DNA of 39,828 nucleotides from Dehalococcoidia bacterium (GTDB lineage Bacteria; Chloroflexota; Dehalococcoidia; UBA2247; RBG-13-53-26): contig JBGOWL010000001.1 of assembly GCA_041478585.1 (NCBI GenBank), positions 1 to 39,828 of the forward strand. Reading direction: 5' to 3'. Position 1 is the first letter of the stretch. Each line of letters opens with the position of its first letter. The notes under the pieces were generated by a model. That model had not been told where the DNA came from and ran no database searches. It saw nothing but the letters and a program-made list of their open reading frames with translations. The translations under genes were made by a program, and so were the position numbers. This document shows, piece by piece, positions 3,308 to 37,736 of this stretch.

Positions 3308-3331
3308 CTCTTGCCTCCTGAAAGGGCGCGC

Positions 3332-4750
3332 TCATGCCCTCAGATATTTGTCTGCGTTGTTGGCCACGATGACGCCATAATTGGCTGCGCCCAGCCATCC
3401 GGACATGATAATGCCCACCGAGCCGGTGTGGAAAAGCCCCCGAATCTGCGCGGGGAGCCCCATGCTGATCTTCAGTCCTTCGAATTTTGTGCCGAATGAG
3501 GTGCCGTTGGGATGAAGTGTATATCTTTCAAAGGTCTTCGGAGTAGCTGCCTCCAGATAGTCGATCTTGTCCCGAACCCCCGGGACGTATTTCCCCAGAG
3601 CATCGACAGTTGACTCGATCAATTCCTGCTTGGATGCTTGGTACTCTTCGGGGGAAAGGTTTGCCCAGTCCTCGTAGTTGGCATTTGTGGAAGCAACTAT
3701 GGAGTACATGTCTGATCCCGGTCTTGTCGTCGGGTAGTAGAAGGAATAGGTCCGACTGGTGATGTTCCTGCTGCGCAATTTCTCGGAGTCGAATTTTTCT
3801 GCCACGGAGGTGAAGTAGAGGTCACCGACGAAATCAATTGCTGCACCTTTCTTGATGCCGATGTAGACCTGGCAACTGCTGTTGTTGATGCGCACCTTTC
3901 TGGCCTCTTCAGCGAAGCCGCTGTCGAAATGCTCGTCGCCAACGAGGTTGCACACTGTTGATTTGGCATTGGCGTTGGAGACCACTGACCTGGCCTTGAT
4001 CGTTTTCCCGTTTGCTACTACGCCGGTGACTTGTCTGCCTTCCACAACTATCCTCTCTACCAGGGAGTGGGTGCGGATGTCGACCCCGTTCTTGATAAGC
4101 TCGGCCTGCATCATGGAGATGATCTTGTCGGTCCCGCCCTGGAAGGTGTAGACGCCTTTGCTCATGAAGTTGGAGAAGACGATTCCATAGCTTATCGCCG
4201 GATCGTCCAGGGTGGATCCATTGGCATAGGTTATTGGCTCCATCAGCAGACGAACCACATCGTCTCGGCCGGGAAAGAATTTCTCGAAGAGCTGTCTGGT
4301 GGTCATCTGCTGGTCGTCATAGAAATTCATTCCTCTGGCAGTATCGAAGAAGGCGTCAAGGGACTCCTTGGGCACTCTGAACTTCTCCTGTAGAATCCTT
4401 GTGAAGTCGTCCCTGTCGAAGGTGGTGCTGAGCGAGAACTGCGGATTGTCGAACCTGATCGCTTTGAGCTGGACAATTGAGTCGGCGATTTCACGATTCC
4501 AGTATTTGCGGCAGGTCTTGATCATACCCACGGGGAATCCGTGCAGGGAGATGTCAAAGATATGCCCGCCCTTTCTGTGGAACCATGTGGCCAGGCCGCC
4601 CAGCTTATGGTGGTGCTCCAGTAGCAGGACGGAGTAGCCGTCCTTGGCCAGCATGTTGGCTGCCGTCAGGCCGCCCAGCCCGCTGCCGATGACAATGACA
4701 TCATATTGTGGTCTTGTGCCTTCCAACCAGTCGCCAGCCATTTCTCTCAT
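3332..4750 (-). CDS. FAD-dependent oxidoreductase, phytoene desaturase (CrtI)/amine-oxidase family
   Basis: 472 aa. [37 protein letters not shown] is the classic GxGxxG-x17-E FAD fold of CrtI/CrtD/RetSat-like enzymes. It overlaps the upstream paralogue by 4 nt. Confidence 0.8.
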
Positions 4751-6186
4751 TTGTCCCTCAACAGGTGTAGATTTGCTATTGTAATGCCGCTCAGCATCGC
4801 GCCCACAATCCCCAGGAATCCCTGATCTGTACCACAGATGAAAAGGTTATCTAGATGCGTCCTGCCGTTTCTTACCTTTTGAGGCGAGCCATACACCGCC
4901 CCATTCAGATGTCCGGTGAATTTGTAGATTGTCTTCGGGGTGAACACATCGCTGAATATAATCGAATCCCGAAAATCGGGGACAATCTTCACTGCTGCCT
5001 CGAGGGTAGCCTTCAGACAAGCCTCCTTCTGCATCTTGTATTCTTCTTTGCCTAAGCTGTTCCAGCGGTCGAAGTTGGCCAGATTGGTGATCCTGATCAT
5101 ATTCTCGGGCAATGGACTGCCGATCACATTCTTGGGCGATGGATTGTCGAACGTATTCTCATGCGGTGGGTCCCCGAAAAAAAAATTGTTGGGACAGCAT
5201 ATGACCCCGCTGGAGACGTCTATCAGACTGTCGGGCTTTCGGTAGCTGAACCTGTCTGAGTCGTTGAAGAAGATTATGGTGGTCTCTAAACCCAGGTCAG
5301 AGGGTTGCTTGTCCACCACCAGGATGGATTCCATGAAGGAAAGCAGCCCCACTTCGTGTTTGGAAACTGTTGTATCGGGGTCGGACAACAGGTTCATGGT
5401 CTCAACATGGCCGACAGTGGACAAAACCTTGTCGGCTGTCAGGACATCGCCGTTGTCTAGCAGGAGGGATTCTGCTTTGCCACCTGAAACCCGAATGCTC
5501 TGTACTCCTGATCTCGTTCTCAATTCGCCGCCACAATCCCCGTATTTCTTCACCAGGAGGTCGAGGATATGCCGCACTCCGGCCCTCGGTCTGGCAAACC
5601 CCTGGCAGAAAATGCTCTTGAACATGATAACAAACTGACCAAATTCCATATCATGCTCCTGGGCGTTCCCATAGTACATAAGTGGGCAGAAAAGCATGTC
5701 AACCAGCAGTGGATTGGAGATTATGCTGCTCACCACCTGGCGTGCCGAAAGTGGCTTTGCCTCCAGTGACAGTTCGTCATATTCGGATATGGTCTTGAGC
5801 AGTTTCTGAAAGTTGTCAGTCTGAGCTGGGAAGTTCTCGGCGACCTCACTGAGAAAAAACTCGAAGTTGTTGGTGAATCGAATTTTCCTTTCGGGAAACT
5901 TGATGACCGACATACGTTGTTGACATAAATCAAGGTCCTCGAATCTCAGCCTCAGTTGTCGCAGCAGCTTTGGCAATGGTGTCGACTTGACACCTTTAGG
6001 AACATAGTTGGTCATGGCATGCAAGCCAACATCGAGCTTGTATCCGTCCTTGCTGTAGAAAGAGTTCAGTCCCCCGACGCGGTGGTGTTTCTCAAGTATG
6101 CAGACCTTCTTGTCGAAGTAGGCTAGCCTGATGCCGGCGGCGAGTCCGGACATTCCTGCGCCAATAATCAAAACGTCGTAGTTCAT
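4747..6186 (-). CDS. FAD-dependent oxidoreductase, phytoene desaturase (CrtI)/amine-oxidase family, second paralogue
   Basis: 479 aa. [37 protein letters not shown] is the N-terminal FAD fold. A 4-nt overlap with the next gene indicates translational coupling. Confidence 0.8.
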
Positions 6187-6352
6187 GGCTCAAGTAATAT
6201 GATCAGCGACCTTCGTATCCCCATGGTCCAGCGGTACAGTGGCTGAAGCAATGTTGGCGGTTGTCTTCACCCCCAGCAGCCCGGCAGTATGGCGGGGTTC
6301 TGGGGGTACGGTGAAGAAAGAAACTGTACTCAGTCTCTTTGCTTGTCTGGGG

Positions 6353-6604
6353 CTAGAGGTGTGCCATGCGCGGTTCGAGGTATGCCACTGCGCCATCGAG
6401 CGTAGCCATCTGAATGTAGTCGTCTTCTGGGACCTCGATTCCGTAGCGTTTTCGCAGTTCCATGATTATGTCCAGGAAGTCCATGGAATCCAACTCAATC
6501 TGGTCACGGATACGGATGTCACCCCTCAGATTGCTCAGATCTTCATCTGGCACAATTTGGGCAATCACTTCCACAATGACAGATCTGATTTGTTCACCAA
6601 GCAT
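6353..6604 (-). CDS. acyl carrier protein
   Basis: 83 aa with a DQIELDSMDFLDIIMEL phosphopantetheine-attachment (DSx) motif. ATG start with a purine-rich RBS (AGGGGGGG) upstream. Confidence 0.85.
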   Translation of the reverse strand: MLGEQIRSVIVEVIAQIVPDEDLSNLRGDIRIRDQIELDSMDFLDIIMELRKRYGIEVPEDDYIQMATLDGAVAYLEPRMAHL

Positions 6605-6645
6605 AAGCCATCCCCCCCTCTAGAATAGCTGTAACTACTATTTCT

Positions 6646-7935
6646 TCAGCATTGCCCATCAAATCTTTTGACGATAACTACCGAATTGATGCCAAGCATG
6701 CCGAAGGAATTATTCATGATATGGTCAATCTTGTCAACCTTTGCGGGCTTATTGATCACCAGATTGGGAATGGCGCATCGGGGGTCCAGGTTGTCCAAGT
6801 TTACTGTTGGATGAACAAAATTGTCATTGAAAGAGGGCAGGTTCCCTGCCAGCTCCAGAGCCCCGGCGGCTCCCATGGTATGGCCGATGTAACTCTTCGT
6901 GTTATTGGTGTAGGTACGGGGGGCATCTTTGAAGACCTCTGCAATTGCCTGGCACTCCTGCAAGTCGCCCTGTTGAGTCCCCGTGGCGTGGCTGCTGACA
7001 ATATCGATATCACTGGCGGAAAGTCCGGCCTTTTTCAACGCCAGCCTCATGCACTCGGCCTGTCTCGGCGCATGTGGAAGAATGAAATCAAATGCATCCG
7101 AGTTTGTGGCATAACCTACGATTTCGCCATAAATCGTAGCCGATCTCCTGAGGGCATCGCTCAGTCTCTCCAGAAGGCAGACACAACCGCCTTCCGAGAC
7201 AACGACGCCGTTTCGGTCCCTGTCAAAGGGGCGGCATGCTTTATGAGGATCAGAATGAGAGGCCAACGCACCCTCACTCTTGAAGCCGGCGAATATGCCG
7301 AAGCTATGAATGCTCTCCGAGACTCCGCCCGCCAGGGCCAGATCTACCTCATCAAGCAGCAGCATTTGCAGACCCTGAATGAGACCGATGTTGCCAGCGG
7401 CGCAGGCGGCTCCCAGGGTGTAGTGAGGTCCGGTGATCCCCATGTTCAAGGTGACTTCGCCAGCCGGATTGTTGGCCACTGTTCTGGGATTGTGGTGATG
7501 TGACCAGTATTTGACGTCATAGTCATATTGCTTGATGGCGTAGATCTCGTTCTCAGTCTCTATATTGCCATGCTCGGTAATTCCAAGGTACACGCCGATC
7601 CCGGATTTGTCCAATGTGGTGAGATCCAGTCCTGAATGAGCGACAGCCTCATTGGCGCAGTAGATGGCTATGGAGCCTGCTCGTGTACCGCGCCGCAACT
7701 CTTTTTTTTTCTGGTACTTCAGCGGGTCGAAGTGGCATACACCTGCCAGTACCTCACCCATGTAATGGGTTTCGATTCTCTCTATGCCAGCCTTCCCGTT
7801 AAGCAGGTTCTGTCTGAATTCCGAGAGGCTATTGCCATTCGGGGCGGTCAGGCCGACGCCTGTAATCACAATACGCTGTTCATTGGCCATTTCGATCTTA
7901 GAGTCCTTGGTTCTTGCTAGAGATACCATGTTCAA
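6646..7935 (-). CDS. beta-ketoacyl-ACP synthase (KAS I/II, FabB/FabF-like)
   Basis: VITGVGLTAP, GAACAAG (active-site Cys), SSHATGT and GHTMGAAG (His/His) motifs. The tracked ORF begins with TTG at 7935. ATG at 7890 (MANEQRIVITG) is the more likely start given the putative promoter at 7921-7948. Confidence 0.9.
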   Translation of the reverse strand: MNMVSLARTKDSKIEMANEQRIVITGVGLTAPNGNSLSEFRQNLLNGKAGIERIETHYMGEVLAGVCHFDPLKYQKKKELRRGTRAGSIAIYCANEAVAHSGLDLTTLDKSGIGVYLGITEHGNIETENEIYAIKQYDYDVKYWSHHHNPRTVANNPAGEVTLNMGITGPHYTLGAACAAGNIGLIQGLQMLLLDEVDLALAGGVSESIHSFGIFAGFKSEGALASHSDPHKACRPFDRDRNGVVVSEGGCVCLLERLSDALRRSATIYGEIVGYATNSDAFDFILPHAPRQAECMRLALKKAGLSASDIDIVSSHATGTQQGDLQECQAIAEVFKDAPRTYTNNTKSYIGHTMGAAGALELAGNLPSFNDNFVHPTVNLDNLDPRCAIPNLVINKPAKVDKIDHIMNNSFGMLGINSVVIVKRFDGQC

Positions 7936-26001: not shown

Positions 26002-26559
26002 CTATAGCTTTCCTTTCAGAGTCTCCTTCATTAGTATTCTACTGTAGTCCCAGAATTGTTGGCGCATACTTCTGAAATCGAGGGTGGTTACTGTGCTACC
26101 GAGGACTCCGAATGGAAGCATCTGAGGTATGAATCCCCTGGCGTATTTAAGCATCCACGTGCGGGGTTTCATACGGTAGCCTTTGTCAGTGCCTCTGCGA
26201 AGGTAGGCCATGTCTCCGGGTTTGTAGATGGCGGGTTCGAACTGGCCTTGCGTATAGCACCACATTTCTCCATCCAGCACGATGTCGTACACATCAGCCC
26301 AATACCGCCCTGAGTATCCTCCTGTAGGAATGGGTGTACCAAAGAAGATAAGATACTCCGACATTGAGCCGTAGAGTACAGTGAGCATGCCCATGGCACC
26401 GCCTGCGACGTTAAAGATCCATCTCCTCTTGCTCGGTATGCGGCCTGGGCATCGCTTATCCAGCGCATCGGAGATTGCTTCGAATTTCTCTTCCAGTGGC
26501 AAATCGAGGTTCTGCTTGCATGTCTCCTGCAATAGATCAGGATCAAAGATATATGCCAT
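26002..26559 (-). CDS. ERG2 / sigma-1 receptor family protein (bacterial homologue, no N-terminal TM)
   Basis: 185 aa, colinear with my recollection of human SIGMAR1 from about residue 55 to the end: WIFNVAGGAMGMLTVLYGSMSEYLIFFGT...GYSGRYWADVYDIVLDG...TWMLKYARGFIP versus [29 protein letters not shown]...GHSGRYWAEISDTIISG...TWMVEYGRGVIP. RBS GGGGAGAGG. Confidence 0.8.
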   Translation of the reverse strand: MAYIFDPDLLQETCKQNLDLPLEEKFEAISDALDKRCPGRIPSKRRWIFNVAGGAMGMLTVLYGSMSEYLIFFGTPIPTGGYSGRYWADVYDIVLDGEMWCYTQGQFEPAIYKPGDMAYLRRGTDKGYRMKPRTWMLKYARGFIPQMLPFGVLGSTVTTLDFRSMRQQFWDYSRILMKETLKGKL

Positions 26560-26845: not shown

Positions 26846-27793
26846 TTATCGGCCTCCTGAGCCAGGTACATGGGTTGTGTTGTCCACAGAAAGCCCGGCT
26901 GCTGCCAGGATATCTGGAACCACTTCTTCTTTGCCGATAGCCATTATGTGGACTCCGTCGCAGACTGAACTGTTTTTCAGCTCTGCGATCATCCGTCCAG
27001 CTATCTCAATGCCCTTGTTGAGCGCACCTCCTTTGGGTGCGCTGGCAAGCTCATCAATCAGATTCTTGGGGACGAAGATACCAGGCACATTCTCGGTCAT
27101 GTACTTTGCCATCCTGGCTGATACAAGCAGGACTATCCCTGCCAAAACCTTGACGCGGAATTGACGGGCATGGTTCATGAACTTACTAAAGTTATCCAGA
27201 TCATACACTGCCTGGGTTTGGAAGAATTCGGCGCCAGCCTCCACTTTCTTTTCGAATTTTATGAGCTGGGGTTCCAGCGGGTGTGCCTCAGGGGTGACGA
27301 TGGCCCCGGCACAAAACTGCACTGCGCCGTCAAGATCATTTCCTCCAAGGTCCTTGCCCGACTCCATATGATGCACTGCTCTAAGCAACTGGACTGAATC
27401 GAACTCGAAGACGTCTGCAGCGTGTTTATGATCGCCAACCACGATCGAATCCCCTGTAAGGCAAAGGACGTTTCTTATACCCCTGGTATATGCCAGGAGC
27501 AGTTCGGCTTGCAGAGCCATTTGATTACGGTCACGGCAGGTCATTTGAAGGATGGGCTCACCCCCCTGCTCTTTGATGTGCAGGCAGCCGCCGATTGAAG
27601 GAAAGCGCATTACTGAACTCTGGTGGTCGGTGACGTTTATAGCGTCAACTTTGTCTCTGAGGATGTCAATGTGGTGACACATCTTCTCGATGTTGGTTCC
27701 CTTTGGAGGGCCTATCTCACTGGTCACCACGAATTTGCCAGAGTTGAGAACTTCTTTGAAGCTTTGCCCAGTCATAGTCTGCTCCTCACTCAT
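26846..27793 (-). CDS. metF: methylenetetrahydrofolate reductase (acetogen-type MetF)
   Basis: 315 aa. FVVTSEIGPPKG, AINVTDHQ, LCLTGD and the TIM-barrel MTHFR layout. It overlaps metV by 4 nt. Confidence 0.9.
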   Translation of the reverse strand: MSEEQTMTGQSFKEVLNSGKFVVTSEIGPPKGTNIEKMCHHIDILRDKVDAINVTDHQSSVMRFPSIGGCLHIKEQGGEPILQMTCRDRNQMALQAELLLAYTRGIRNVLCLTGDSIVVGDHKHAADVFEFDSVQLLRAVHHMESGKDLGGNDLDGAVQFCAGAIVTPEAHPLEPQLIKFEKKVEAGAEFFQTQAVYDLDNFSKFMNHARQFRVKVLAGIVLLVSARMAKYMTENVPGIFVPKNLIDELASAPKGGALNKGIEIAGRMIAELKNSSVCDGVHIMAIGKEEVVPDILAAAGLSVDNTTHVPGSGGR

Positions 27794-28434
27794 GAGATTT
27801 TGATCATTCGTGGTCTAGGTATGACGTGTGAGTTCTTTGGAGGTTGATACTTCCGCATCACGTCGAGTCGACCCTGATTTTTCAAGCGCTCATAGATGAG
27901 AGTCCAAGCGCAATTCTTTGCCTTGTCAATTTCGCATTTGCCGTCATTGGTGCCGCCGCATGGGCCATTCAACAGGTGTTTGTGGCACATCGTAACGGGA
28001 CAGATGCCGGCAGTGAAGCCTAGAACACAATGGCCACACTGGGCACAAACCTCATGGAAATTGCCCGGATCCTCCTCGAGGCCAATGAACAGAGTATCCA
28101 ATGCCGGAATGACAGGCTTGTCGATGTACGAAGCTAGCTTGTGTACTCCCAGAGCGCAGCTCATGACCATGATACAATGCGCATTATGAATAGCACCATT
28201 GTTTTCCTTGAGAGATACAGAGGTCATCTCATCGCAGGCAATGGGAATTACGATCCAGCCAGTGACCATCTTGCCCAACACCTGGAGATGCTCCTTCATA
28301 TGCAAGACCTCTTCCCTACCTCCCGTCTTGGTCATAGTGGCACATGTACCACAACCAACCAGGTATATTCTGTCCATGCCGTCCAATTGCCGCTCAATCT
28401 CTTCAAGAGGCTTCTGTCTGGTAATAGATTTCAT
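27790..28434 (-). CDS. metV: MetV (MTHFR-associated Cys-rich zinc/Fe-S subunit, MTHFR_C domain)
   Basis: 214 aa. CAQCGHCVLGFTAGICPVTMCHKHLLNGPCGGTNDGKCEIDKAKNCAWTLIYERL matches the MTHFR C-terminal-like domain, and the gene is translationally coupled to metF. Confidence 0.8.
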   Translation of the reverse strand: MKSITRQKPLEEIERQLDGMDRIYLVGCGTCATMTKTGGREEVLHMKEHLQVLGKMVTGWIVIPIACDEMTSVSLKENNGAIHNAHCIMVMSCALGVHKLASYIDKPVIPALDTLFIGLEEDPGNFHEVCAQCGHCVLGFTAGICPVTMCHKHLLNGPCGGTNDGKCEIDKAKNCAWTLIYERLKNQGRLDVMRKYQPPKNSHVIPRPRMIKIS

Positions 28435-28474: not shown

Positions 28475-31400
28475 TCATGTTTCCAAATCACATCTCAGAC
28501 AACGCTGGGCTTCCTGGCGGGCGCTTGCCTCTGAGAAGCTCAGCTCGATTTCCTTGAAGGAGTGTTTTCTTTCCTGAGCCGGGATTGTAGGAATCTCCTG
28601 CCGTGGGTGTGCTTCCCATGTTTCCTGCTCTTCAGGCAGGTTGACTGCAGCAGCAGTTCTCATTTTCAGATCGTATATCTCAACCCGCGAATCGTCGCCC
28701 TTGAGATATTTGTCGATAGAGATAGCCGCTCTTCTTCCAGCGGCGATGGCGTTGATGACCATGCCAGGGCCGGTGACGAAGTCGCCTCCAGCAAAGATGC
28801 CATTGACGTTTGTCGCCAGCGTATTATTGTTGACGGCCAATGTCTCCCAACGAGTACGTTCCAGAGCGCTGTTAGCCGGTAGAAAGGACAGGTCAGGAGC
28901 TTGGCCTACCGCAGCGATGACGGTATCAGCCTCAGCGAAGAATTCAGAGCCGTTAATAGGCATAGGCCGCCGACGTCCACTGCCGTCAGGTTCCCCCAAC
29001 CTCATGCGGATACATTGCAGGCCACCTGTTTTCCAGTTTTCAGTCACTATTCGGGTGGGACTGACCAGGAAGTTCAATTCAATCCCTTCAGCTACGGCTT
29101 CATCGTACTCTGCCTTGGTCACTGGCATCTCGTTCCGGGACCGCCTATAGTAGATTTGCACTTTCTCAGCACCAAGACGAAGAGCTGCCCGAGATGAGTC
29201 CAGTGCAACATTTCCACCACCGATGACTGCTACCCGGCGCCCCACGTTGACCTGCCTGCCGATCTTAATATCTCTCAGGAATCTCAACCCATAGTAAAGG
29301 CCTTCAATATCCTCTAGCTCCCCTGGTATCCCTATGCGCTGGCTTCTCTGAGCGCCGGCAGCAACAAACACGGCAGCAAATCCGTCCTTCTTGAGATCGT
29401 CTACGGTGAAATTCGCATTTATGGGCGAGTCGTATTTTATGTATACGCCGCGTTTGGCTATGTAGTCTATCTCTCTCTGAATCACCTCTTTGGGCAGGCG
29501 AAATTCGGGTATTGCCACTGACAACATACCTCCGCCTACAGGCAGTGCTTCAAAAACGGTCACCGGGTAGCCCATCTGTGCCATGAAGTAGGCGCAGCTC
29601 AACCCAGTGGGGCCAGCCCCGACAACGGCCACTCTTTGATTCTGGGTCTGAGGAAAAGGCTTGGGTTCGGGCAATTCCGCACTGTGCTCGAAATACCAAT
29701 CGGCCGCAAAACGCTTGAGCGCCCTGATGCTTACTGGATCGTCCAGTTCTCCGCGACGACATCGCATCTCACACGGGTGATGACAGATGCGACCGCAGAT
29801 GGCAGGGAAGGGATTTCGCTCCCTAATGGTATCGATGGCCTCTTCATATTCACTAGCAGTGATATGCGCTAGATACTTGGGGACGTTAGTGCCTACCGGG
29901 CAGGTATGCTGGCAAGGCGATATCATCAAAGCATCGCAGGCAGCAGCAGGGCATTTCTTGTCCTTGATATGGGCTTCATACTCATCGCGGAAGTAGTTGA
30001 TGGTGGAAAGCACTGGATTGGGACAGGTCTGGCCCAGGCCGCAGAGAGAGCATTCCTTGACGACCCTGGCTATGGCAAGCAATGTATCGAGATCTTCATC
30101 GCGGCCCTTGCCCTGGGTGATTCTGGTCAGTATCTCCAACATCTGCCTTGTTCCCAGCCGGCAGGGAGTACACTTTCCGCAGGATTCGTCCTGTGTGAAA
30201 CTGAGGAAATAGCGAGCCATTTCTACCATACAGGTCGTATCATCTAGGACCACCATGCCGCCGGAACCCATGATGGAGCCTACCTGGGCCAGCGTGTCGT
30301 ATTCCACAGGGAGGTCAATCAAATTGGCGGGGATACATCCCCCTGAAGGACCACCGGTTTGTACTGCTTTAAGCTGCTTGCCGCGAGGGATTCCACCCCC
30401 GATATCGTAGATTATGGTGGAAAGAGGAGTGCCCATAGGTACTTCAACCAAACCGCTGTTGGCGATCTTACCTGTAAGTGCAAAGACAGCTGTGCCCCTG
30501 CTCTTCTCGGTACCGAGACCAGCAAACGACTCACTGCCCCGGCTGATTATCACTGGAACGGTAGCCAGCGTTTTGACATTGTTGATTATCGTGGGCTTCC
30601 CATCCAAGCCTGACTGTGCTGGGAAGGGGGGCCGTGGACGTGGCATTCCCCGCCGGCTTTCGATGGATGCTATCAGTGCTGTCTCCTCTCCACAAACGAA
30701 GGCTCCGGCGCCCTCCTTAACATGTATGTTGAAATCGAAGCCGGAACCAAGAATATCCTTGCCGAGAAACTTTTTTTCTTGCGCTTGTTGCAGGGCAATT
30801 TGAAAACGTTTGACCGCCAAGGGATACTCGGCGCGGACATATATGTAACCTTCGCTGGCTCCAATGGCATATCCTGCAATGATCATTCCCTCGATAACGG
30901 CGTGGGGATCGGCCTCCAGGATGGATCGATCCATGAAGGCGCCTGGATCGCCTTCATCGGCATTGCAGATGAGGTACTTCTGCTGCGCAATGGCAGTCTG
31001 GCAGAACTCCCACTTACGCCATGTGGGGAAACCAGCGCCACCACGACCTCGGAGGCCGGACTTCTTGATCTCTTCAATTACTGTCTGAGGTGTCATCTCG
31101 AGCAGGGCTTTTTGTAGACCCTTGTAGCCATCTCGGACAATATAGTCATCCACTTTCTCAGGGTTGATGTGCCCACAATTGCGCAGGATGATCCGCTGCT
31201 GTTTGCTATAGAAGCTTATGTCGGAATATAGTGGTATAGCCTGATCTGTCACTGGGTCTCGGTAGAAGAGGCGCTCCACCGGCTTGTTATCGCGAAGATG
31301 AGATGTCGCTATCTCAGGAGCATCCTCAATATCAACGTGGGTATAGAAGATGCCGTCAGGCTCAATGACCACGTTAGGCCCCTGCTCACAGAAGCCATGG

Positions 31401-31537
31401 CAACCAGTGAAATCGACCCTGACATTTTTCAGGGCTAGTTTCCCTACATCTGCTTTGAGGGCTTCATATATGGCTTCAGAACCTGCTGAGGCACATCCTG
31501 TTCCCTGACAGACGAACACAGTGCGGTGCTTTGCCAT
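28475..31537 (-). CDS. NuoF-like (FMN/NADH, Fe-S) fused to a GltD-like NAD(P)H:FAD oxidoreductase
   Basis: 1020 aa. N-terminal thioredoxin-like 2Fe-2S (CQGTGC...GCHGFCEQGP); NuoF core (GLRGRGGAGFPTWRKW, NADEGDPGAF, ESCGKCTPCRLG, CGLGQT); GltD-type Fe-S linker (CQHTCPVGTNVP, ICHHPCEMRC); two Rossmann motifs (VAVVGAGPTGLSCA and VAVIGGGNVALD). Confidence 0.9.
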   Translation of the reverse strand: MAKHRTVFVCQGTGCASAGSEAIYEALKADVGKLALKNVRVDFTGCHGFCEQGPNVVIEPDGIFYTHVDIEDAPEIATSHLRDNKPVERLFYRDPVTDQAIPLYSDISFYSKQQRIILRNCGHINPEKVDDYIVRDGYKGLQKALLEMTPQTVIEEIKKSGLRGRGGAGFPTWRKWEFCQTAIAQQKYLICNADEGDPGAFMDRSILEADPHAVIEGMIIAGYAIGASEGYIYVRAEYPLAVKRFQIALQQAQEKKFLGKDILGSGFDFNIHVKEGAGAFVCGEETALIASIESRRGMPRPRPPFPAQSGLDGKPTIINNVKTLATVPVIISRGSESFAGLGTEKSRGTAVFALTGKIANSGLVEVPMGTPLSTIIYDIGGGIPRGKQLKAVQTGGPSGGCIPANLIDLPVEYDTLAQVGSIMGSGGMVVLDDTTCMVEMARYFLSFTQDESCGKCTPCRLGTRQMLEILTRITQGKGRDEDLDTLLAIARVVKECSLCGLGQTCPNPVLSTINYFRDEYEAHIKDKKCPAAACDALMISPCQHTCPVGTNVPKYLAHITASEYEEAIDTIRERNPFPAICGRICHHPCEMRCRRGELDDPVSIRALKRFAADWYFEHSAELPEPKPFPQTQNQRVAVVGAGPTGLSCAYFMAQMGYPVTVFEALPVGGGMLSVAIPEFRLPKEVIQREIDYIAKRGVYIKYDSPINANFTVDDLKKDGFAAVFVAAGAQRSQRIGIPGELEDIEGLYYGLRFLRDIKIGRQVNVGRRVAVIGGGNVALDSSRAALRLGAEKVQIYYRRSRNEMPVTKAEYDEAVAEGIELNFLVSPTRIVTENWKTGGLQCIRMRLGEPDGSGRRRPMPINGSEFFAEADTVIAAVGQAPDLSFLPANSALERTRWETLAVNNNTLATNVNGIFAGGDFVTGPGMVINAIAAGRRAAISIDKYLKGDDSRVEIYDLKMRTAAAVNLPEEQETWEAHPRQEIPTIPAQERKHSFKEIELSFSEASARQEAQRCLRCDLET

Positions 31538-31543: not shown

Positions 31544-32038
31544 TTACCCCCTAGCGTTAGTGCTGTCTCCGAAAATCTGGGACACTTTCTTAGGATTTAG
31601 ATGACCGTAGGTTTGCTTGCCGATAACCATGTTAGGCGCCATTGCACAGACTCCAATGCAGGCAACGGTCTCCAGGGTGTACTCCATGTCGAGGGTGGTT
31701 TGGCCTTCCTCTATGCCAAGGTGCTGTTTCGCCAGTTTCAGAATTGTCTTGCCACCCCGCACGTGGCAGGCTGTACCACGGCATACTCTAACGATCCTCT
31801 TTCCCCTCGGCTCGGTGTAAAGCTGTGAGTAGAAAGTGATGACCCCTTGTATTTGGGAAGGGAACATGTTGAGGGCTCTGGCAATAGGTTCGATAGCTTC
31901 AGGAGGTATGAATCCGGACTCATTCTGGATTTCCTGAAGAATTGGAATCAATGGCCATTTCCGGGCACGGTAGTGCTCTATGATCTGGTCTACGAGTGTC
32001 AGGTCACACTTGGTGTTTTTCTCATTCATGGGAGTCAA
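31544..32038 (-). CDS. NuoE/HndA-like [2Fe-2S] subunit
   Basis: 164 aa. ALIPILQ-type segment (PLIPILQEIQNESGFIP), CRGTAC and CIGVCAMAP cluster ligands. It overlaps the upstream gene by 17 nt, or 8 nt if the start is ATG 32029. Confidence 0.85.
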   Translation of the reverse strand: MTPMNEKNTKCDLTLVDQIIEHYRARKWPLIPILQEIQNESGFIPPEAIEPIARALNMFPSQIQGVITFYSQLYTEPRGKRIVRVCRGTACHVRGGKTILKLAKQHLGIEEGQTTLDMEYTLETVACIGVCAMAPNMVIGKQTYGHLNPKKVSQIFGDSTNARG

Positions 32039-34721
32039 TCCTTTCCAGTCTCACACTACAGGCTTTCAGAGAAGGTGTTTTGGATTGTGGGTCCAGATCA
32101 ATGTCGAACAGGGCATTGACGGGACTCTCTGGGAAAGCGATGGGCATGAAAAGCATTCCTTCTGTTACAGTGTCAGTAATCCTGGCTTTGGCACTGATCT
32201 GGCCAGACGGTGAGACAATCTTGACCCTGTCACCCTCATTGATTTCCAGATGGGATGCATCTATGTTAGAAATGTCCACAGGTGCTTCCGGCAAGAACCT
32301 GTTCAGTCGCGAGGCCCTTGAGGTTCTGGATCCGCTTCCGAATTGATACAGGCTGGTGCCTGTGATGAGGGTGAGAGGATATCCATCCTTTGACAACTCT
32401 CTGTTCGGGACATAGTGAACTGGTGAAAAGCGGCCAAATCCGCTAGGGAACTGACCTTTGTAGAGGCGTCTAGCCCCCGGGGGAGGATTGCCGAACTCAG
32501 CTCGGTAGATTCCTTTCATCTCTGAGTCAGTGTAGCCTGTGCCCTGATAGAAGGGGACAAGCTCTTCGATCTCATCCATGATGTGTTCAAGAGATGAATA
32601 GGGCATTGGATAGCCCATCCTTTTCGCCAACTGAAGGATTATTCCCCAATCAGGTAGGCTCTGGCCGACAGGGTCAATGACCTTATGCAATCTTTGGACC
32701 CTTCCTTCAAAGTTGGTGAAGGTACCCTCTTTCTCAGCGAAACTTGCGGCTGGGAGTACAACAGTGGCCAGCCTGGCTGTTTCAGTAAGGAACATGTCCT
32801 GCACCACGAGGAAATGGAGTGATGCCAGGGCTTCCCTGACCAGGGCTAAATGTGGGAAGCTCGCCGCTGGATTTTCCCCCACAACGTACATTGCTTTGAT
32901 TCTTCCCTCTCTGGCTTGTTCGATCATTTCCAGGGCTGTCAGGCCAGCGCCGGTCGGGTCACATTTGCCCCAAAGATCTGCAAATCTCTTCAAAGTCTGG
33001 GGATCATCCACGAATTGATATCCGGGAAGGAAAGAGGGCAGGACACCCATGTCGCATGCTCCTTGCCCATTGCTATCTCCTTGTAGTGCATAGATGCCGC
33101 CTGAACCGTGCCCGACGTTGCCGGTAAGCATGGCCAGATTTGCCAGTGCCATTACACCGTCTGTTCCAGTGATGTGTTGAGTGACTCCTTTGCCAAAAAC
33201 AATGGAAGCCTGATTTGCTGCGGCAAAGATCTGAGCAGCACTCCGCAGTTCCTGACTTGAAACGCCGGTTATTTCCTCTGCAAGCTCCAGGGTATATGTC
33301 TCTAGACCCTGACGAAATGCCTCGAAGTTGTCTGTCCGTCTGGTCACGAACTCCTCATCGAGAAGGCTTTCAGTGATTATTAACCTTGCCAAGCCATTCA
33401 GGAGAGCTACATCGGTGCTTACTTTCGGCTTCAGCCAGAGATGGGCAAATGCAGTGAGTTTCGTTCTCCGAGGATCCACAAGAAGTAGCTTGGCGCCTCG
33501 ATATCTAACTGCGCGTTTTATGGCATATCCGACCAAGGGGGCCGAAGAGGTAGGATCAGCTCCTACGACCAATATGGCGTCTGATTGTTCCAGATTCTCA
33601 AGAGAGCCGGTCGTTCCGGGCAAGCCAAGGTTCCACCCCAAGCCTTTGCGACTGGCAGCGCTGTACAACCGACTGCTATTGTCGACGTTATTGGTGCCCA
33701 GCACACATCGAGCAAACCTCTGCAGGAGGTAGTTTTCCTCATTGGTGCACTTGGGTGAACCAAGGACAGCCAGGCTTTCAGGGCCGTCAGCTTCCCTGAT
33801 GCGGCCCAGTTCGGTGGCGACAAGATCCCAAGCCTCTTCCCAGGATGATCCCTTGAAGTCGCCATTGACCTTGATCAAAGGCTGGGTCAGTCTTTCGGAG
33901 CTGTGCACAAAATCGTAGCCATAGCTTCCCCTGACACAAAGCGTACCACGGTTAACCGGGCTGTCTTTATCTGGCCTGCAGCGCACTATTGTGTTGTCTT
34001 TGACTTCAAGGGAGATACCACAACCACAGCCACAGAAGGGACAGATGGTTGTTACTGTTCTGTTAGTAGTTCCCGCGTACGGCCTTTCCTTTTCCATTAG
34101 AGCGCCAGTGGGGCAGAATGCCACACAGGTACCACAGAAGGTGCAATCGGACTTCTCCAGGGCACTGTCATTCAGTGTTGCTGGCCTGGAGGTAAATCCG
34201 CGTCGGATGTAGTCAATAACACCCTCAACCACAAGTTCATGGTCAGCCCTGATACACTTGGCGCAGAGGATGCATTTGCTCAGATCTCTTTCAAGAAACG
34301 GATTGACTTCTTTGATGAGAGAAGGTTGAGGGATTTTCTGGAATTCTACCAGGCCGATGCCGCTTTCCGAAGCAATTCGACGCAGTTCACACCGGTTACC
34401 CTTGTCACACACCAGGCAAGAGTCAGGATGACTGGCCAGCATGAGTTTGACTATAATCTTGCGTCTCTCCAGTACCCTTGCGGACTCGGTGTTGATTACC
34501 ATTCCTGAAGCTATAGGCGTGACGCAAGAGGCCATTAGAGCACCAGAGCGTTCATCTTCTACTAGACAAATGCGACATGCACCGAATGGAGCCAAATGAG
34601 AGTCGTTGCAGAGTGTGGGGATATTTACACCAGACTCATCCGCCAGTTCGAGCACGGTCATTCCTGGGTGACCGCTTACTTCGCGTCCGTTAAGCGTAAT
34701 CGTGATTGTTTCCAATAGCAA
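32022..34721 (-). CDS. formate-dehydrogenase-alpha/NuoG-like molybdopterin-fold subunit lacking the FDH catalytic residues
   Basis: 899 aa. N-terminal 2Fe-2S, HPDSCLVCDKGNRC, two ferredoxin-type 4Fe-4S (CILCAKC, CTFCGTCVAFCP), MopB 4Fe-4S (CPFCGCGC), then a colinear FdhF-like body. The Sec/Cys-His site reads RLYSAAS and the Arg333 equivalent is Gln. TTG start (34721 or 34715) after GGAGGGGAG. Confidence 0.85.
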   Translation of the reverse strand: MLLETITITLNGREVSGHPGMTVLELADESGVNIPTLCNDSHLAPFGACRICLVEDERSGALMASCVTPIASGMVINTESARVLERRKIIVKLMLASHPDSCLVCDKGNRCELRRIASESGIGLVEFQKIPQPSLIKEVNPFLERDLSKCILCAKCIRADHELVVEGVIDYIRRGFTSRPATLNDSALEKSDCTFCGTCVAFCPTGALMEKERPYAGTTNRTVTTICPFCGCGCGISLEVKDNTIVRCRPDKDSPVNRGTLCVRGSYGYDFVHSSERLTQPLIKVNGDFKGSSWEEAWDLVATELGRIREADGPESLAVLGSPKCTNEENYLLQRFARCVLGTNNVDNSSRLYSAASRKGLGWNLGLPGTTGSLENLEQSDAILVVGADPTSSAPLVGYAIKRAVRYRGAKLLLVDPRRTKLTAFAHLWLKPKVSTDVALLNGLARLIITESLLDEEFVTRRTDNFEAFRQGLETYTLELAEEITGVSSQELRSAAQIFAAANQASIVFGKGVTQHITGTDGVMALANLAMLTGNVGHGSGGIYALQGDSNGQGACDMGVLPSFLPGYQFVDDPQTLKRFADLWGKCDPTGAGLTALEMIEQAREGRIKAMYVVGENPAASFPHLALVREALASLHFLVVQDMFLTETARLATVVLPAASFAEKEGTFTNFEGRVQRLHKVIDPVGQSLPDWGIILQLAKRMGYPMPYSSLEHIMDEIEELVPFYQGTGYTDSEMKGIYRAEFGNPPPGARRLYKGQFPSGFGRFSPVHYVPNRELSKDGYPLTLITGTSLYQFGSGSRTSRASRLNRFLPEAPVDISNIDASHLEINEGDRVKIVSPSGQISAKARITDTVTEGMLFMPIAFPESPVNALFDIDLDPQSKTPSLKACSVRLERIDSHE

Positions 34722-34848: not shown

Positions 34849-35634
34849 CTACGCGGCGACATTATGGACAAAGCGCTGTCCCTGACTCACAGTTCTGATT
34901 GCATCCAGAAGCTCTGAGCCGGCGCTTCTCTTTGGTACAAAGCCGATTGCTCCCGCCTGAGTACTAGCCAAGACGTTCTCCTCATCGTCATATTGACTCA
35001 GCATCAGAACCTTGGCAGTGTCCCACTGTGAGCGTATGCGTTTGGTGGCCTCCAGGCCATTCATCACCGGCATAACTATGTCCATCAACACTACGTCAGG
35101 AGAAAGGTCGATGGTCTTCTGGAGTGCTTCCTGGCCGTTGACTGCCTCACCTACTACCTGCATGTCCCTCTGGAGAGCCAACAGCGCTCTGATTCCTTCT
35201 CTGATTATGGCGTGGTCATCCACTACCAGCACTTTGATCCTTCTGGTCGATCTATCGAGCAGTTTCTCCACTCGGGATACCAGTGATAGTGGTTCGAGTG
35301 GCTTAACCAGATAGTCGTCAGCCTCAAGATGCAGTCCTTCGTCTTTGCTCCACCCTTTTGTCAGTTGCTTCTCGGGGGATGCATCAATGACGATGATCGG
35401 CAGATCGCCGAATTGTGGCGCCTGTCTGAACCACTGATGCAGCCTGAAGGCCTCTCCTCTTGGCATCAAGGTGCCGAGTATGACAATATCGGGCCTTTCT
35501 GACCAGGCCATTTCCTGCGCTTGAGCTCCAGTGCTCGCAAGAGTCACTTTATGCCTGGATTTCAGAGTCGAGCGCAAACGATCCGCAAAACCGGAGTCAT
35601 CATCGACAATCAAGATCTTCGCTTTGGTGTCCAT
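34849..35634 (-). CDS. dual-receiver response regulator without an output domain (REC1 lacks the phospho-Asp)
   Basis: I place the start at ATG 35634 (GGAGGG RBS 5 nt upstream) rather than the tracked 35754. REC1 is ILIVDDD...PDIVILGTLMP...YLVKP, with Gly where the acceptor Asp is expected. REC2 is VLVVDDH...PDVVLMDIVMP, canonical NarL-type. There is no HTH. Confidence 0.8.
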   Translation of the reverse strand: MDTKAKILIVDDDSGFADRLRSTLKSRHKVTLASTGAQAQEMAWSERPDIVILGTLMPRGEAFRLHQWFRQAPQFGDLPIIVIDASPEKQLTKGWSKDEGLHLEADDYLVKPLEPLSLVSRVEKLLDRSTRRIKVLVVDDHAIIREGIRALLALQRDMQVVGEAVNGQEALQKTIDLSPDVVLMDIVMPVMNGLEATKRIRSQWDTAKVLMLSQYDDEENVLASTQAGAIGFVPKRSAGSELLDAIRTVSQGQRFVHNVAA

Positions 35635-35914
35635 TTTCACCCTCCTTCTACAGGTCTTCCTCTTGAGCCGAACAGCTCGGCGTGAGGTACAGTTCAAGGA
35701 TAGGCGAGTTCTCCTACACCAGAAAGGGGGGTTCAAAGCGGACCGAGACCGCAAAACCCCTTGGATTTCCGCAGATAACCCCTTGGTTTGGTCCTGGCAA
35801 ACCCCCGGTGCCTTCGTCTCCTATGCTCTGTGGAATGGAAGTGGGAATGAATGAGGGATCGCAAATGCCAGGGGTGGGTGTGGGATGTGCAGCGAAACGA
35901 GACGGTGCGTGGGT

Positions 35915-36568
35915 TCAGACCGTTATGATGCCCTTGCGCAGAGCGTATTTGACCAGGTCAACCCGATTGTGTATGTCAAGCTTGTCCATGAGGTTTGTCT
36001 TGTAGCCCTCGACGGTCTTGGGACTGATAACCAGGATCTCTGCGATCTCTTGAGTAGTGTGACCCTCTGCCAGAAGTTTGAGGACCTCCCTTTCACGGCC
36101 TGTTAGCTGATCATAGGGGTCACGTCTTTCCTGCAGGTTTCCGCCGGTCTGGACGTTTTCTACCAGCAACTTGGCTACTGAAGGTGATAGGAAGGAGTCT
36201 CCCCGGTAGATGGAACGGATGCCAACGACGAGCTCGGATGAGGCGGCTGTCTTGCTGATGAAACCATGAGCCCCCGCCTCGATAACCGGGAAAACATACT
36301 CCTTGTCAGCGTACTGGGTGAGAGCCAATACCCTTGTTCCCGGGAACTGCTTTCTTATCCGTCTTGTTGTCTCCATGCCTCCCAGCAAAGGCATGGCAAT
36401 ATCCATGATGACCACATCAGGTGCCAGTTCTTTGACCTTCTCCATAGCTTCCTGACCGTTGGCTGCCTCACCGACTACTTCCATGTCGGCTGCCAAGCTC
36501 AGAAGAGCGCAAATACCGTCTCGTACTATGGTATGGTCATCTACCACCAGTATTCTTATCTTCTTCAT
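35915..36568 (-). CDS. NarL/FixJ-family response regulator (REC + LuxR HTH)
   Basis: ILVVDDH, PDVVIMDIAMP, and a C-terminal LTGREREVLKLLAEGHTTQEIAEILVISPKTVEGYKTNLMDKL. Confidence 0.9.
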   Translation of the reverse strand: MKKIRILVVDDHTIVRDGICALLSLAADMEVVGEAANGQEAMEKVKELAPDVVIMDIAMPLLGGMETTRRIRKQFPGTRVLALTQYADKEYVFPVIEAGAHGFISKTAASSELVVGIRSIYRGDSFLSPSVAKLLVENVQTGGNLQERRDPYDQLTGREREVLKLLAEGHTTQEIAEILVISPKTVEGYKTNLMDKLDIHNRVDLVKYALRKGIITV

Positions 36569-37736
36569 CAGCCATACTCCGAATCACAGGAACTCTGGCC
36601 GTCACCACAGTACCTTCTCCAGGCTGAGACTTGATGGAGCATGCACCACCAAGAAGGGACACTCGTTCCTTCATGCTGAACACGCCTCGGCCTCTGCCGC
36701 TTTCCTCTATTCCTGTGATCTTCGAAACGTCAAACCCCCTACCATCATCGGTGATGCGCAATAGCAGGTCATTAGCTCTGCATTCCATAGCTATGGTGAC
36801 ATTCTTTGCCTGGGAGTGCCTGGCTATATTGCCTATCGCCCCTTGAGCAAACCGGAAGAGCCCTGCTTCCACCTCTGGTGGCAAGGAACCAAAGTTGCCC
36901 CTGCATTCCAGGGACGTGTTGATTCCCAGGTGAGCAAGAGTGGTCTCAGCATACTGCCTGATGGCTGGTACCAGCCCCAGTGTATCCAGGAGGGTGGGCC
37001 GAAGCTCTCTTATTATCCTGCTGACCTCAGTAGCTACCTGGACGGCAAGGGAGTGCGCTTTTCTCAGTCTCGATTTGAATTCTTCATCCCGAGTGTTGGA
37101 CATGTCAGCCATGTCAACCAATGCTTGCAGGTTGAGAGCCAAGCCAGACAGTGTTTGGCTTGTTTCATCATGCAGTTCACGAGATAATCTGCTTCGTGCT
37201 TCCTCTTGAGCCATCAAGACCTGGCGTGCCAACTGACGATACCGCTCCCTACCTTTTGCCAGCCGCTCGTACAGCTTCGCCTGCTCAATGGCCACACCCA
37301 GCTGGTCGCCTATCGAGTGCAGGAGGTGCATATCATCCTTGGTGAAACGATGAGGCAAGTGACTAGCTACATTGATCACGCCCCAGACAGCCTCCTTTGA
37401 CCTCAGGGGGACGCTGATGAATGCTCTCAGATCCTCTGCCTGCACCAAATCTGGATAGGCGGCGAGGGGCTCTGTCGAAATATCCTCTACCAGGATGGAT
37501 TTGCTGCTGTGGGCTACCCTCCCGGCGACTCCCTCACCCAGCTTGAGGCGTATTTCGTCAGCGAATTTGGGTGACAACCCGCGGTAGACCCGATAGGACA
37601 GAGTCTTAGTCTCTTCGTCTAGGAGCAGGATGCCTCCGATGCTGCCATCCATGATGCTGAGTACGTTATCGAGGGCAACTTCAAGAATGGCGTCGAGGTC
37701 CCACAGCCCGCTGACTGCCGCGGAGACACGACTCAA
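36537..37736 (-). CDS. GAF-domain sensor histidine kinase (HisKA_3/HATPase_c)
   Basis: GAF region (GGILLLDEE...GEGVAGRV), H-box ELHDETSQTLSGL, N/G boxes (NIARHSQA, DDGRGF, GRGVFSMKER). No TM segment. TTG start; the frame is open a further ~45 codons upstream without an ATG. Confidence 0.85.
   Translation of the reverse strand: MSRVSAAVSGLWDLDAILEVALDNVLSIMDGSIGGILLLDEETKTLSYRVYRGLSPKFADEIRLKLGEGVAGRVAHSSKSILVEDISTEPLAAYPDLVQAEDLRAFISVPLRSKEAVWGVINVASHLPHRFTKDDMHLLHSIGDQLGVAIEQAKLYERLAKGRERYRQLARQVLMAQEEARSRLSRELHDETSQTLSGLALNLQALVDMADMSNTRDEEFKSRLRKAHSLAVQVATEVSRIIRELRPTLLDTLGLVPAIRQYAETTLAHLGINTSLECRGNFGSLPPEVEAGLFRFAQGAIGNIARHSQAKNVTIAMECRANDLLLRITDDGRGFDVSKITGIEESGRGRGVFSMKERVSLLGGACSIKSQPGEGTVVTARVPVIRSMADEEDKNTGGR

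Follow-up and report, generated by a model that had tools for sequence, protein, structure and literature searches.

We analyzed a stretch of 39,828 nucleotides from a Dehalococcoidia bacterium (GenBank assembly GCA_041478585.1, contig JBGOWL010000001.1, positions 1 to 39,828 of the forward strand), referred to here as the window. It encodes an FdhA-like protein, similar to the alpha subunit of formate dehydrogenase (FDH). As judged from its sequence, this protein descends from the alpha subunit of an NAD(P)-linked FDH and has lost formate oxidation. Its gene is the first of five that form a translationally coupled operon: fdhA-like, nuoE, nuoF-gltD, metV, and metF. According to the reading that we favor, with a probability of about 0.6, the protein is an inactive, probably pterin-free subunit of the BfuA type, a wire and scaffold that feeds electrons to MetFV in a five-subunit, NAD(P)H-linked methylene-tetrahydrofolate (methylene-THF) reductase.

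Loss of the formate dehydrogenase active site

The fdhA-like gene starts with TTG, and a GGAGG-type Shine-Dalgarno sequence lies close 5' of this start. Pfam domains Fer2_4, NADH-G_4Fe-4S_3, Fer4_Nqo3, Molybdop_Fe4S4, Molybdopterin, and Molydop_binding are found in its open reading frame (ORF). The gene and the codons that replace the catalytic triad are the following.

32022..34721, minus strand: fdhA-like (BfuA/NuoG-like) gene; 899 amino acids, TTG start; N-terminal [2Fe-2S] and [4Fe-4S] clusters, then a MopB fold without the FDH catalytic triad
33660..33665, minus strand: Tyr353 (TAC, 33665-33663) and Ser354 (AGC), replacing selenocysteine (Sec)/Cys140 and His141 of FdhF
33081..33083, minus strand: Gln547 (CAA), replacing Arg333 of FdhF

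The initial annotation of this DNA had equated Tyr353, Ser354, and Gln547 with Sec140, His141, and Arg333 of E. coli FdhF. Two alignments bear this out, with the codons exactly as given. According to phmmer, the closest sequences in the PDB are NAD-type FDH alpha subunits (E values of 1e-173 to 4e-172); Cys386-His387 of R. capsulatus FdsA fall over Tyr353-Ser354 ('tcarvCHsptgygl' / 'nssrlYSaasrkgl'), and FdsA Arg587 falls over Gln547 ('gvnplRgqnnvqgscdmg' / 'giyalQgdsngqgacdmg'). A MAFFT alignment of FdhF (reference sequence identical to PDB 1aa6_A), the window protein, and 76 relatives upholds the loss of the triad: it places Y353 at Sec140, S354 at His141, and Q547 at Arg333, and no Cys/Sec-His pair or Arg is recovered. 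It also places R264 at Lys44, which lies between the pterin and the proximal cluster. The C/U-H...R signature (U, Sec) is present in FdhF and in all 48 canonical relatives. Because the loop of the window protein, VDNSSRLYSAASR, contains neither Cys nor His, no alternative register restores the pair. Position 548 was considered as the site of a shifted stand-in for Arg333 and was rejected: it holds Arg in 86 of 121 sequences, but Gly in the window protein and Ser, Asp, or Lys in others.

Reading of ORF 32022-34721 agrees with the earlier description of an uninterrupted frame, and there is no in-frame TGA among its 899 codons. A pseudogene, a sequencing error, and Sec recoding were each rejected, since the ORF is intact, no in-frame TGA occurs, and the substitutions are common to the homologs. 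The protein reaches a score of 723.8 against TIGR01591, the NCBIfam equivalog for the FDH alpha subunit, above the curated cutoff of 666.25. An AlphaFold2 model, built from an alignment of 66 sequences, likewise predicts a fold resembling FDH, with template modeling (TM) scores of 0.72-0.74 in Foldseek.

A triad-less clade linked to metV and metF

A search of about 5.8 billion proteins returned 4763 homologs with E values of 1e-50 or lower. The best 120 share 66-100% identity with the window protein and come mainly from Chloroflexota/Dehalococcoidia metagenomes; wherever the source supplies a name, it is "formate dehydrogenase subunit alpha." In the set made up of the window protein and these 120, position 353 is Tyr in 115/121 and position 547 is Gln in 120/121, and more than 100 homologs at 66-87% identity carry the same substitutions. 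By this sequence record, the protein is under purifying selection, neither decaying nor the product of an error. Among the 150 best representatives of 50%-identity clusters, 70 lack both the Cys and the Arg, and the canonical triad is present in 48.

We assembled 80 loci from a scan of one genome per GTDB species, placed the window proteins on them by tblastn, and constructed a neighbor-joining tree for 77 relatives encoded in GTDB genomes. Two clades separate cleanly in it: a canonical one with the C/U-H..R signature and a triad-less one that contains the window protein. All triad-less proteins belong to the latter except that of L078, in which Arg is replaced by Ser and which groups with the canonical proteins. 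Canonical members carry the motifs VDHCARL[C/U]H, NPLRGQNNVQG, and TTGRxLYHxHT, in contrast to IDNGSRLY[S/N/G] and ALQ[R]E/D in the triad-less proteins of Dehalococcoidia and Bacillota. Elsewhere in the triad-less clade, one Actinomycetota genome has Cys-Gly..Gln, and the Desulfobacterota have Ser/His..Ala/Glu. What stands at the ligand position thus differs between branches (Y, C-G, S, H, or D), which argues against a new conserved metal ligand.

The two clades also differ in gene order. In the triad-less clade, the fdhA-like gene is followed by nuoE, nuoF (usually fused to a GltD/NfnL-like NADPH domain), metV, and metF. Where at least 5.6 kb of downstream sequence is available, metV lies downstream in 14/14 loci of this clade versus 1/19 canonical loci. 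Similarly, nuoE lies downstream of the fdhA-like gene in 28 of the 29 non-triad loci, L078 being the exception, whereas nuoE and nuoF precede fdhA in canonical loci (nuoF in 36 of the 38 with enough upstream sequence). The operon is conserved in Dehalococcoidia and occurs in some Actinomycetota, Bacillota, and Desulfobacterota, and the same arrangement is found on two long metagenomic contigs (L001 and L002), one of which adjoins an acetyl-CoA synthase gene. In two Bacillota/Clostridia loci, L018 and L027, the NuoF-like protein stops right after its hinge and has no NADPH domain; fdhA-like, nuoE, nuoF, metV, and metF are all kept. MetFV, not the NADPH module, is therefore the constant partner.

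Three representatives of other dead FdhA-like proteins were checked, and they fall outside this arrangement or cannot be followed far enough. For P0123 and P0126, the fdhA-like gene is followed by nuoE, and the contigs end too early to show metVF. P0141 (L085:240-5319) belongs to a nuoE-nuoF-fdhA-like trimer without MetVF; thus, not all dead FdhA-like proteins are linked to MetVF, and further dead-FDH complexes exist.

Two further arrangements were observed in these loci. In two Dehalococcoidia metagenome-assembled genomes (L026:8001-12253 and L028:7557-10900), a canonical FdhA gene, with Cys-His and Arg intact, is directly followed by metV, and in L026 metF is also present; neither locus has nuoE or nuoF nearby. 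The L026 protein branches at the base of the canonical clade. From their gene content, these loci could encode a formate-linked methylene-THF reductase or an intermediate toward the dead-FDH type. In two Desulfobacterota (L068:7092-7979 and L073:7032-7934), a second, divergent MetF-like gene lies directly upstream of the dead fdhA-like gene; its product shares 28-30% identity with the MetF of the window, and a metV-metF pair is also located downstream.

Erosion of the catalytic part and retention of the Fe-S clusters

We asked which positions conserved in true FDHs have been given up. Of 242 positions conserved in at least 90% of the canonical clade, the MetVF-linked clade keeps 152 and loses 40. 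A stricter test considered the 147 positions of the MopB part at which at least 90% of the NAD-type FdhA proteins have the same residue as E. coli FdhF. The clade keeps 90 of these FDH-universal positions and loses 23, counting as lost those replaced in the window protein and in at least 80% of the clade. The lost positions are, in FdhF numbering, the following.

Active-site loop: Cys136, Ala137, Sec140, His141, Val145
Gly155-Ala156-Met157
His181, Ile206, Met297
Pro331, Arg333, Gly334, Gln335, Val338
Ala369, Arg460
Trp528-Pro529-Cys530
Arg581, Arg631

We take Val338 of FdhF to be the equivalent of Val592 in the R. capsulatus enzyme (RcFDH). According to the structural literature on RcFDH and MeFDH1, Val145 and Met157 line a tunnel, and RcFDH Val592 faces the sulfido ligand. 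Equivalents of several lost positions are mutant sites of D. vulgaris FdhAB (V197 and M405), listed among the Foldseek matches. In MopB proteins, the cap domain and the 'xHP' and 'TGR' segments supply basic and His residues that contact the two molybdopterin guanine dinucleotide (MGD) nucleotides. The label "pterin-binding" for the lost residues draws partly on such general knowledge of the MopB fold, together with differential conservation.

The Fe-S ligands have had a different fate. They are located as follows.

34113..34610, minus strand: N-terminal Fe-S ligands; [2Fe-2S] C38/C49/C52/C66 and His-ligated [4Fe-4S] H98/C102/C105/C111
Within 34113..34610, minus strand: two ferredoxin-type motifs, C150/C153/C156/D160 and C193/C196/C199/C203
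33936..34043, minus strand: FS0-type [4Fe-4S]; Cys227, Cys230, Cys234, and Cys262, with the neighboring Arg264 as Lys44 equivalent

Every one of these ligands is conserved across the clade except at position 160 (codon 34242-34244), the fourth Cys of the first CxxCxxCxxxC motif, which is Asp in the window protein, in 17/29 clade members, and in 3/48 canonical FDHs. This substitution suggests that one cluster of the wire is ligated by Asp or is of the [3Fe-4S] type. The four Cys residues of FS0 are present in all 29 clade members and all 48 canonical proteins. At the Lys44 position, Lys is found in 48/48 canonical proteins; in the clade, Arg occurs in 20/29 and Lys in 9/29.

Pairwise identity along the protein reveals a pattern inverted relative to that of true FDHs.

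Fe-S N terminus: MetVF-linked clade, 0.69; canonical FDHs, 0.46
MopB domains: MetVF-linked clade, 0.56; canonical FDHs, 0.61
Cap domain: MetVF-linked clade, 0.48; canonical FDHs, 0.56
Linker: MetVF-linked clade, 0.36; canonical FDHs, 0.55

Taken together, the lost positions, the retained Fe-S ligands, and the inverted identity profile point to selection on the electron wire and the fold, not on the catalytic pocket. It is likely, at roughly three chances in four by these sequence criteria, that the Mo/W-bis-MGD cofactor has been lost. The initial annotation had described all N-terminal Fe-S motifs as intact, and likewise the remainder of the MopB fold. This stands for nearly all Fe-S ligands and for the FDH-like fold; it fails for Cys160, which is Asp, for the Lys44 equivalent, which is Arg, and for the 23 lost positions of the MopB part. 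The suggestion of a NuoG-like electron-transfer scaffold made there gains support from the combination of retained Fe-S ligands and an eroded active site. The conserved operon context, with nuoE, nuoF-gltD, metV, and metF, had been missed.

Partner subunits encoded in the operon

Spacing between the five genes is tight: the first two overlap by 17 nucleotides (nt), the next two junctions are gaps of 6 and 40 nt, and metV and metF overlap by 4 nt. The subunits and domains encoded after the fdhA-like gene are the following.

31544..32038, minus strand: NuoE/HydC/BfuC-like [2Fe-2S] subunit; 164 amino acids; Pfam 2Fe-2S_thioredx (E value of 3e-48); start overlaps the fdhA-like stop
29924..31537, minus strand: NuoF/HydB/BfuB-like core, residues 1-538 of a 1020-residue fusion; Pfam Complex1_51K and NADH_4Fe-4S
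28475..29920, minus strand: GltD/NfnL-like flavin adenine dinucleotide (FAD)/NADPH domain, residues 540-1020 of the fusion; Pfam Fer4_20 and Pyr_redox_2
27790..28434, minus strand: MetV, small Cys-rich subunit of MetFV; Pfam DUF5981 (PF12225, "Methylene-tetrahydrofolate reductase C terminal"; E value of 3e-35)
26846..27793, minus strand: MetF, flavin catalytic subunit; Pfam MTHFR (PF02219; E value of 1e-39), with MTHFR matches in the PDB; start overlaps the metV stop

In the NuoE-like subunit, Cys86, Cys91, Cys127, and Cys131 form a C-x4-C-x35-C-x3-C pattern with the same spacing as that in Tsi NfnC. The NuoF-like core has sites for an N-terminal [2Fe-2S] cluster, flavin mononucleotide (FMN)/NADH, the B1 [4Fe-4S] cluster, and a His/Cys hinge (B2). 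It is closest to the bifurcating proteins HydB, NfnB, and StnB, namely 7t2r_B (A. mobile NiFe-HydB, 779 bits), 7q4v_B (HydB), 9bov_B (C. saccharolyticus NfnB), and 8oh5_B (S. ovata StnB), versus about 380-410 bits for the non-bifurcating FdsB and Nqo1. The hinge site is conserved in virtually all Bfu B subunits, according to a recent structure paper, and here its residues C436, H523, C529, and C534 are kept in 16/16 sequences, with the motif 'HIKDKKCPAxxC' aligned with HydB. The other cluster Cys residues of the core (C10/15/46/50 and C453/456/459/499) are conserved as well.

The alignment with HydB and NfnB ends at residue 538-540 of the fusion. Bfu B subunits all carry a C-terminal ferredoxin-like domain with two CX2CX2CX3CP motifs, which hold clusters B3 and B4. 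No such motif is visible in the 1020-residue sequence, and the GltD/NfnL-like domain stands in place of the ferredoxin-like tail. The best PDB match of this domain is NfnA (9bov_A, residues 102-567), and StnC (8oh5_C, residues 102-566) also matches. It has an FAD GxGxxG motif and the sequence GGGNVA, which fits GxGxxA, described by the authors of the Stn study as an NADP(H) signature. Eight Cys residues (C542, C546, C581, C585, C589, C593, C1013, and C1016) are kept in 16/16 sequences.

The same NuoF-GltD fusion is encoded upstream of canonical Cys/Sec FdhA genes in many phyla, in the following canonical loci.

Canonical loci with NuoF-GltD: L034, L035, L037, L042, L046, L047, L050, L054, L059, L062, L070, L076, L079, L080, L082

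The fusion is thus older than the loss of the FDH site, and these loci imply a putative FDH class in which a site for NAD(H) and one for NADP(H) are combined. No other MetFV partner genes (hdrABC/mvhD or rnfC2) occur in the window, L001, or L002. Among the window ORFs scanned, we detected no gene for a molybdenum cofactor insertion chaperone (fdhD/fdsC-like), and genes for the Nuo membrane arm or NuoB/C/D/I are absent from these ORFs and from L001 and L002.

Comparison with known systems

In sequence, the closest relatives of the FdhA-like subunit are the NAD(P)+-dependent metal FDHs (R. capsulatus FdsABG, or, in many anaerobes, FdhA with NuoE and NuoF-GltD). Identity is 41-45%, the domains come in the same order, the Fe-S motifs agree, and the partners encoded nearby, NuoE and NuoF-GltD, are the same as well. 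The system of the window differs from them in the loss of the triad and of about 20 more FDH-universal residues and in its gene order, with the fdhA-like gene first and MetVF appended instead of nuoE-nuoF-fdhA.

The StnABC/NfnABC transhydrogenases of Sporomusa ovata, Caldicellulosiruptor saccharolyticus, and Thermococcus sibiricus combine the same four modules, an inactive FdhF/NuoG-like domain included, and in S. ovata their genes also lie next to metVF. Yet several features set the two apart. In StnABC/NfnABC, the NADPH domain is in the N-terminal part of the NuoG-like subunit (A, or StnC), whereas here it forms the C terminus of the NuoF-like protein and the FdhA-like subunit has none. The B3/B4 ferredoxin-like domain is present there and missing here. 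The FdhA-like subunit of the window is full length, with a cap domain, and is nearer to true FDHs (E value of 1e-173, versus 4e-79 to StnC, 8oh5_C). Finally, MetVF here belongs to the same operon, and Hdr/Mvh genes are lacking. With regard to the Bfu family as a whole, the sites for FMN/NADH, B1, the N-terminal [2Fe-2S] cluster, the B2 hinge, the C1 cluster of the NuoE-like subunit, and the clusters of the A subunit are present, whereas the ferredoxin branch (B3/B4) is absent.

The FdhF-like domain of StnC is annotated as FDH, shows no formate activity, and has been described as catalytically inactive; a dead FDH-like domain thus has a direct precedent. This precedent, the loss of the triad across the clade, and the disappearance of further residues conserved in FDHs all support the earlier view that the protein of the window is unlikely to oxidize formate. 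NuoG/Nqo3 and SfrA of G. sulfurreducens SfrAB offer additional parallels, as FDH-alpha-related proteins with N-terminal Fe-S clusters and a MopB-like fold that are not FDHs; NuoG/Nqo3 appear among the PDB and Foldseek matches, and SfrA, which pairs with the GltD-like NADPH subunit SfrB, was likened by description. Similarity to NuoG is confined to the N-terminal half (residues 4-440 of the window protein), whereas similarity to FDHs extends over the full length, and complex I membrane-arm genes are absent near the fdhA-like gene among the ORFs scanned. These comparisons with cofactor-free relatives (StnC, NfnA, A. mobile HydA, NuoG, and SfrA) were made by E value, covered range, and literature.

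As in MetFV reductases that have an input module (MetFV-RnfC2 of A. woodii, HdrABC-MvhD-MetFV of Moorella and Sporomusa, and MetFV of C. ljungdahlii), metV and metF are adjacent here and co-oriented with flavin/Fe-S input genes. RnfC2 of A. woodii is a NuoF-related NADH/FMN protein and provides the NADH input of its MetFV. In the window, the predicted input module is instead a Bfu-like unit of three subunits, one of them a dead FDH-like protein, and it has a second flavin site, of the NADPH type. In Dethiosulfatarculus, and "widely in Desulfobacterales and Chloroflexi," Yi et al. (2021) saw homologs of NuoEFG encoded upstream of metFV, and they speculated on an "X type" reductase; neither the loss of the FDH active site nor the fusion with an NADPH domain is described there.

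Proposed electron flow and alternative explanations

The set of components that stays constant in the clade, namely the dead FDH-like subunit, NuoE, the NuoF core, and MetFV, provides the basis for the simplest mechanism. The FMN of the NuoF-like core would take up electrons from NADH, and most members would also bind NADP(H), at the fused FAD domain. The Fe-S clusters of NuoE, of the NuoF core, and of the FdhA-like subunit would carry the electrons to MetV, from which they would reach the flavin of MetF for the reduction of 5,10-methylene-THF to 5-methyl-THF. In organisms with an oxidative Wood-Ljungdahl pathway, the flow would be reversed. Such a complex may either funnel NAD(P)H electrons to MetF or bifurcate them.

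Bifurcation is conceivable because the core is of the Bfu type and an NADP(H) module occupies the place of its ferredoxin branch. We put forward only tentatively, as an unlikely but specific proposal, a ferredoxin-independent bifurcating methylene-THF reductase in which NADH electrons would be split between methylene-THF, at high potential, and NADP+, at lower potential. Such an enzyme would amount to a transhydrogenase driven by the reductase reaction. NADH would be oxidized at the Bfu-type FMN/B1/C1 site. One branch would lead through the dead FDH-like subunit to MetV and MetF, where methylene-THF would be reduced exergonically (about -200 mV). The second branch would lead through the hinge to the NfnL-like domain, which takes the place of the ferredoxin-binding domain, and on to NADP+. 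The net reaction would be 2 NADH + NADP+ + CH2-THF -> 2 NAD+ + NADPH + CH3-THF. Run in reverse, in the oxidative Wood-Ljungdahl pathway, NADPH would help to pull the endergonic oxidation of methyl-THF with NAD+. The Bacillota/Clostridia variants without an NADPH domain would then be plain NADH-dependent reductases.

Several observations weigh against the wire-and-scaffold reading itself. We infer the physical complex between the FdhA-like protein and MetFV from synteny alone, and adjacency can mislead: in S. ovata, stnABC lies directly downstream of metVF, yet Stn is a separate enzyme. In the papers searched, we found no characterized NuoEFG- or Bfu-linked MetFV and no connection drawn between Bfu enzymes and MetF, the paragraph of Yi et al. 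(2021) being the only mention of the arrangement. As for the cofactor, 90 of the 147 FDH-universal MopB positions are still kept and the TIGR01591 cutoff is passed, so a pterin-type cofactor may persist. The strict retention of FS0, beside the former active site, would be odd for a dead end unless electrons exit there. The structure papers on RcFDH and MeFDH1 contain general statements on MGD binding and, as far as we found, no list of contact residues. Lastly, the AlphaFold2 model is of moderate quality, with a mean predicted local distance difference test (pLDDT) score of 68 and values below 50 in segments 549-552, 726-761, and 790-811.

The example of S. ovata also bears on an alternative in which the FdhA-like, NuoE-like, and NuoF-GltD proteins form a stand-alone transhydrogenase of the Stn/Nfn-Bfu type, acting on NADH, NADPH, and ferredoxin and merely co-located or co-regulated with metVF. 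The domain inventory is that of StnABC/NfnABC (NuoE-like, bifurcating-type NuoF-like, NfnL/GltD-like, and inactive FdhF-like), as would be expected in this case. Yet the ferredoxin-like 2x[4Fe-4S] domain common to all Bfu B subunits has given way to the NADPH domain, and transhydrogenation would be impossible in L018 and L027, which have no NADPH domain and nevertheless keep fdhA-like, nuoE, nuoF, metV, and metF. Moreover, metV follows in every clade locus with enough sequence, and MetVF has no other partner genes in the window, L001, or L002. We consider this alternative improbable.

Still less probable is a remodeled pocket in which Mo/W-pterin is kept, with Tyr353 as ligand or in the second sphere, and in which another substrate is oxidized with transfer of electrons to NAD(P)+ or MetFV. 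The complete MopB fold, with its kept positions and its score above the TIGR01591 cutoff, is compatible with such a site, as are the high conservation of Tyr353 and Gln547 in the Dehalococcoidia branch and the retention of FS0 together with a basic residue at the Lys44 position. However, different branches of the clade have different residues at the ligand position, and we know of no Tyr that serves as a metal ligand in the dimethyl sulfoxide (DMSO) reductase family. Residues facing the cofactor (His181, Arg460, Arg581, Arg631, and the WPC loop) have been lost, the cap domain and linker are the least conserved regions, and no fdhD/fdsC-like gene was detected among the window ORFs scanned. That the protein is still an FDH with non-canonical residues, as the name given by automated pipelines implies, or else a decaying pseudogene or sequencing artifact, is very hard to believe: all three catalytic residues are gone with no compensating Cys or His in the loop, StnC, with a comparable inactive domain, shows no formate activity, and the ORF is intact and shares its substitutions with more than 100 homologs.

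Neighboring genes

Upstream of the operon lies a regulatory trio on the same strand.

34849..37736, minus strand: upstream regulatory trio; GAF/HisKA_3 histidine kinase (36537-37736), LuxR-type response regulator (35915-36568), and double-receiver response regulator (34849-35754)

Pfam Response_reg matches two stretches of the protein encoded at 34849-35754. The Pfam families of the trio are also seen in L001 and L002, and tblastn places all three regulators 5' of the fdhA-like gene in 16 related loci, L016 from Actinomycetota among them. In the Clostridia locus L027, the kinase and the LuxR regulator are located downstream, on the opposite strand.

Directly downstream of metF, at 26002-26559 on the minus strand, the window encodes a 185-residue ERG2_Sigma1R protein (sterol C-8 isomerase/sigma-1 receptor family; Pfam E value of 1e-58). 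Such a protein is unusual for a bacterial genome, and tblastn did not find it in the related loci. At 754-7935, also on the minus strand, there is a fatty-acid/polyketide-type cluster with no relation to the fdhA-like finding. It comprises a phosphopantetheinyl transferase, two proteins like short-chain dehydrogenase/reductase or enoyl-acyl carrier protein reductase, a FabA-like dehydratase, two flavoproteins like amine oxidase or phytoene desaturase, and a ketoacyl synthase.

Significance

An FDH-like subunit without the FDH site is already known from NuoG, StnC, and SfrA and is very common in sequence space. The added value lies in the context: a widespread five-subunit type of MetFV reductase, as predicted here, with a domain-swapped Bfu core and systematically annotated as FDH. 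Pipelines assign this name because the curated cutoff of TIGR01591 is passed, and the problem of misannotation is large, since 70 of the 150 best 50%-identity representatives have neither the Cys nor the Arg. As a consequence, when the metabolism of Dehalococcoidia and other subsurface anaerobes is reconstructed, formate oxidation or the first, CO2-reducing step of the Wood-Ljungdahl pathway can be assigned in error.

How the reduction of methylene-THF is coupled to energy conservation is a long-standing question in acetogens and reverse acetogens, and for the Hdr-MetFV enzyme of Moorella a second acceptor has yet to be identified. The operon described here represents a different, compact, and widespread system, the coupling partners of which can be guessed from sequence. 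With regard to evolution, it would exemplify stepwise module swapping within the Bfu/FDH/complex I superfamily, in which an FDH active site was lost, the ferredoxin domain of the diaphorase was exchanged for an NADPH domain, and MetFV was recruited.

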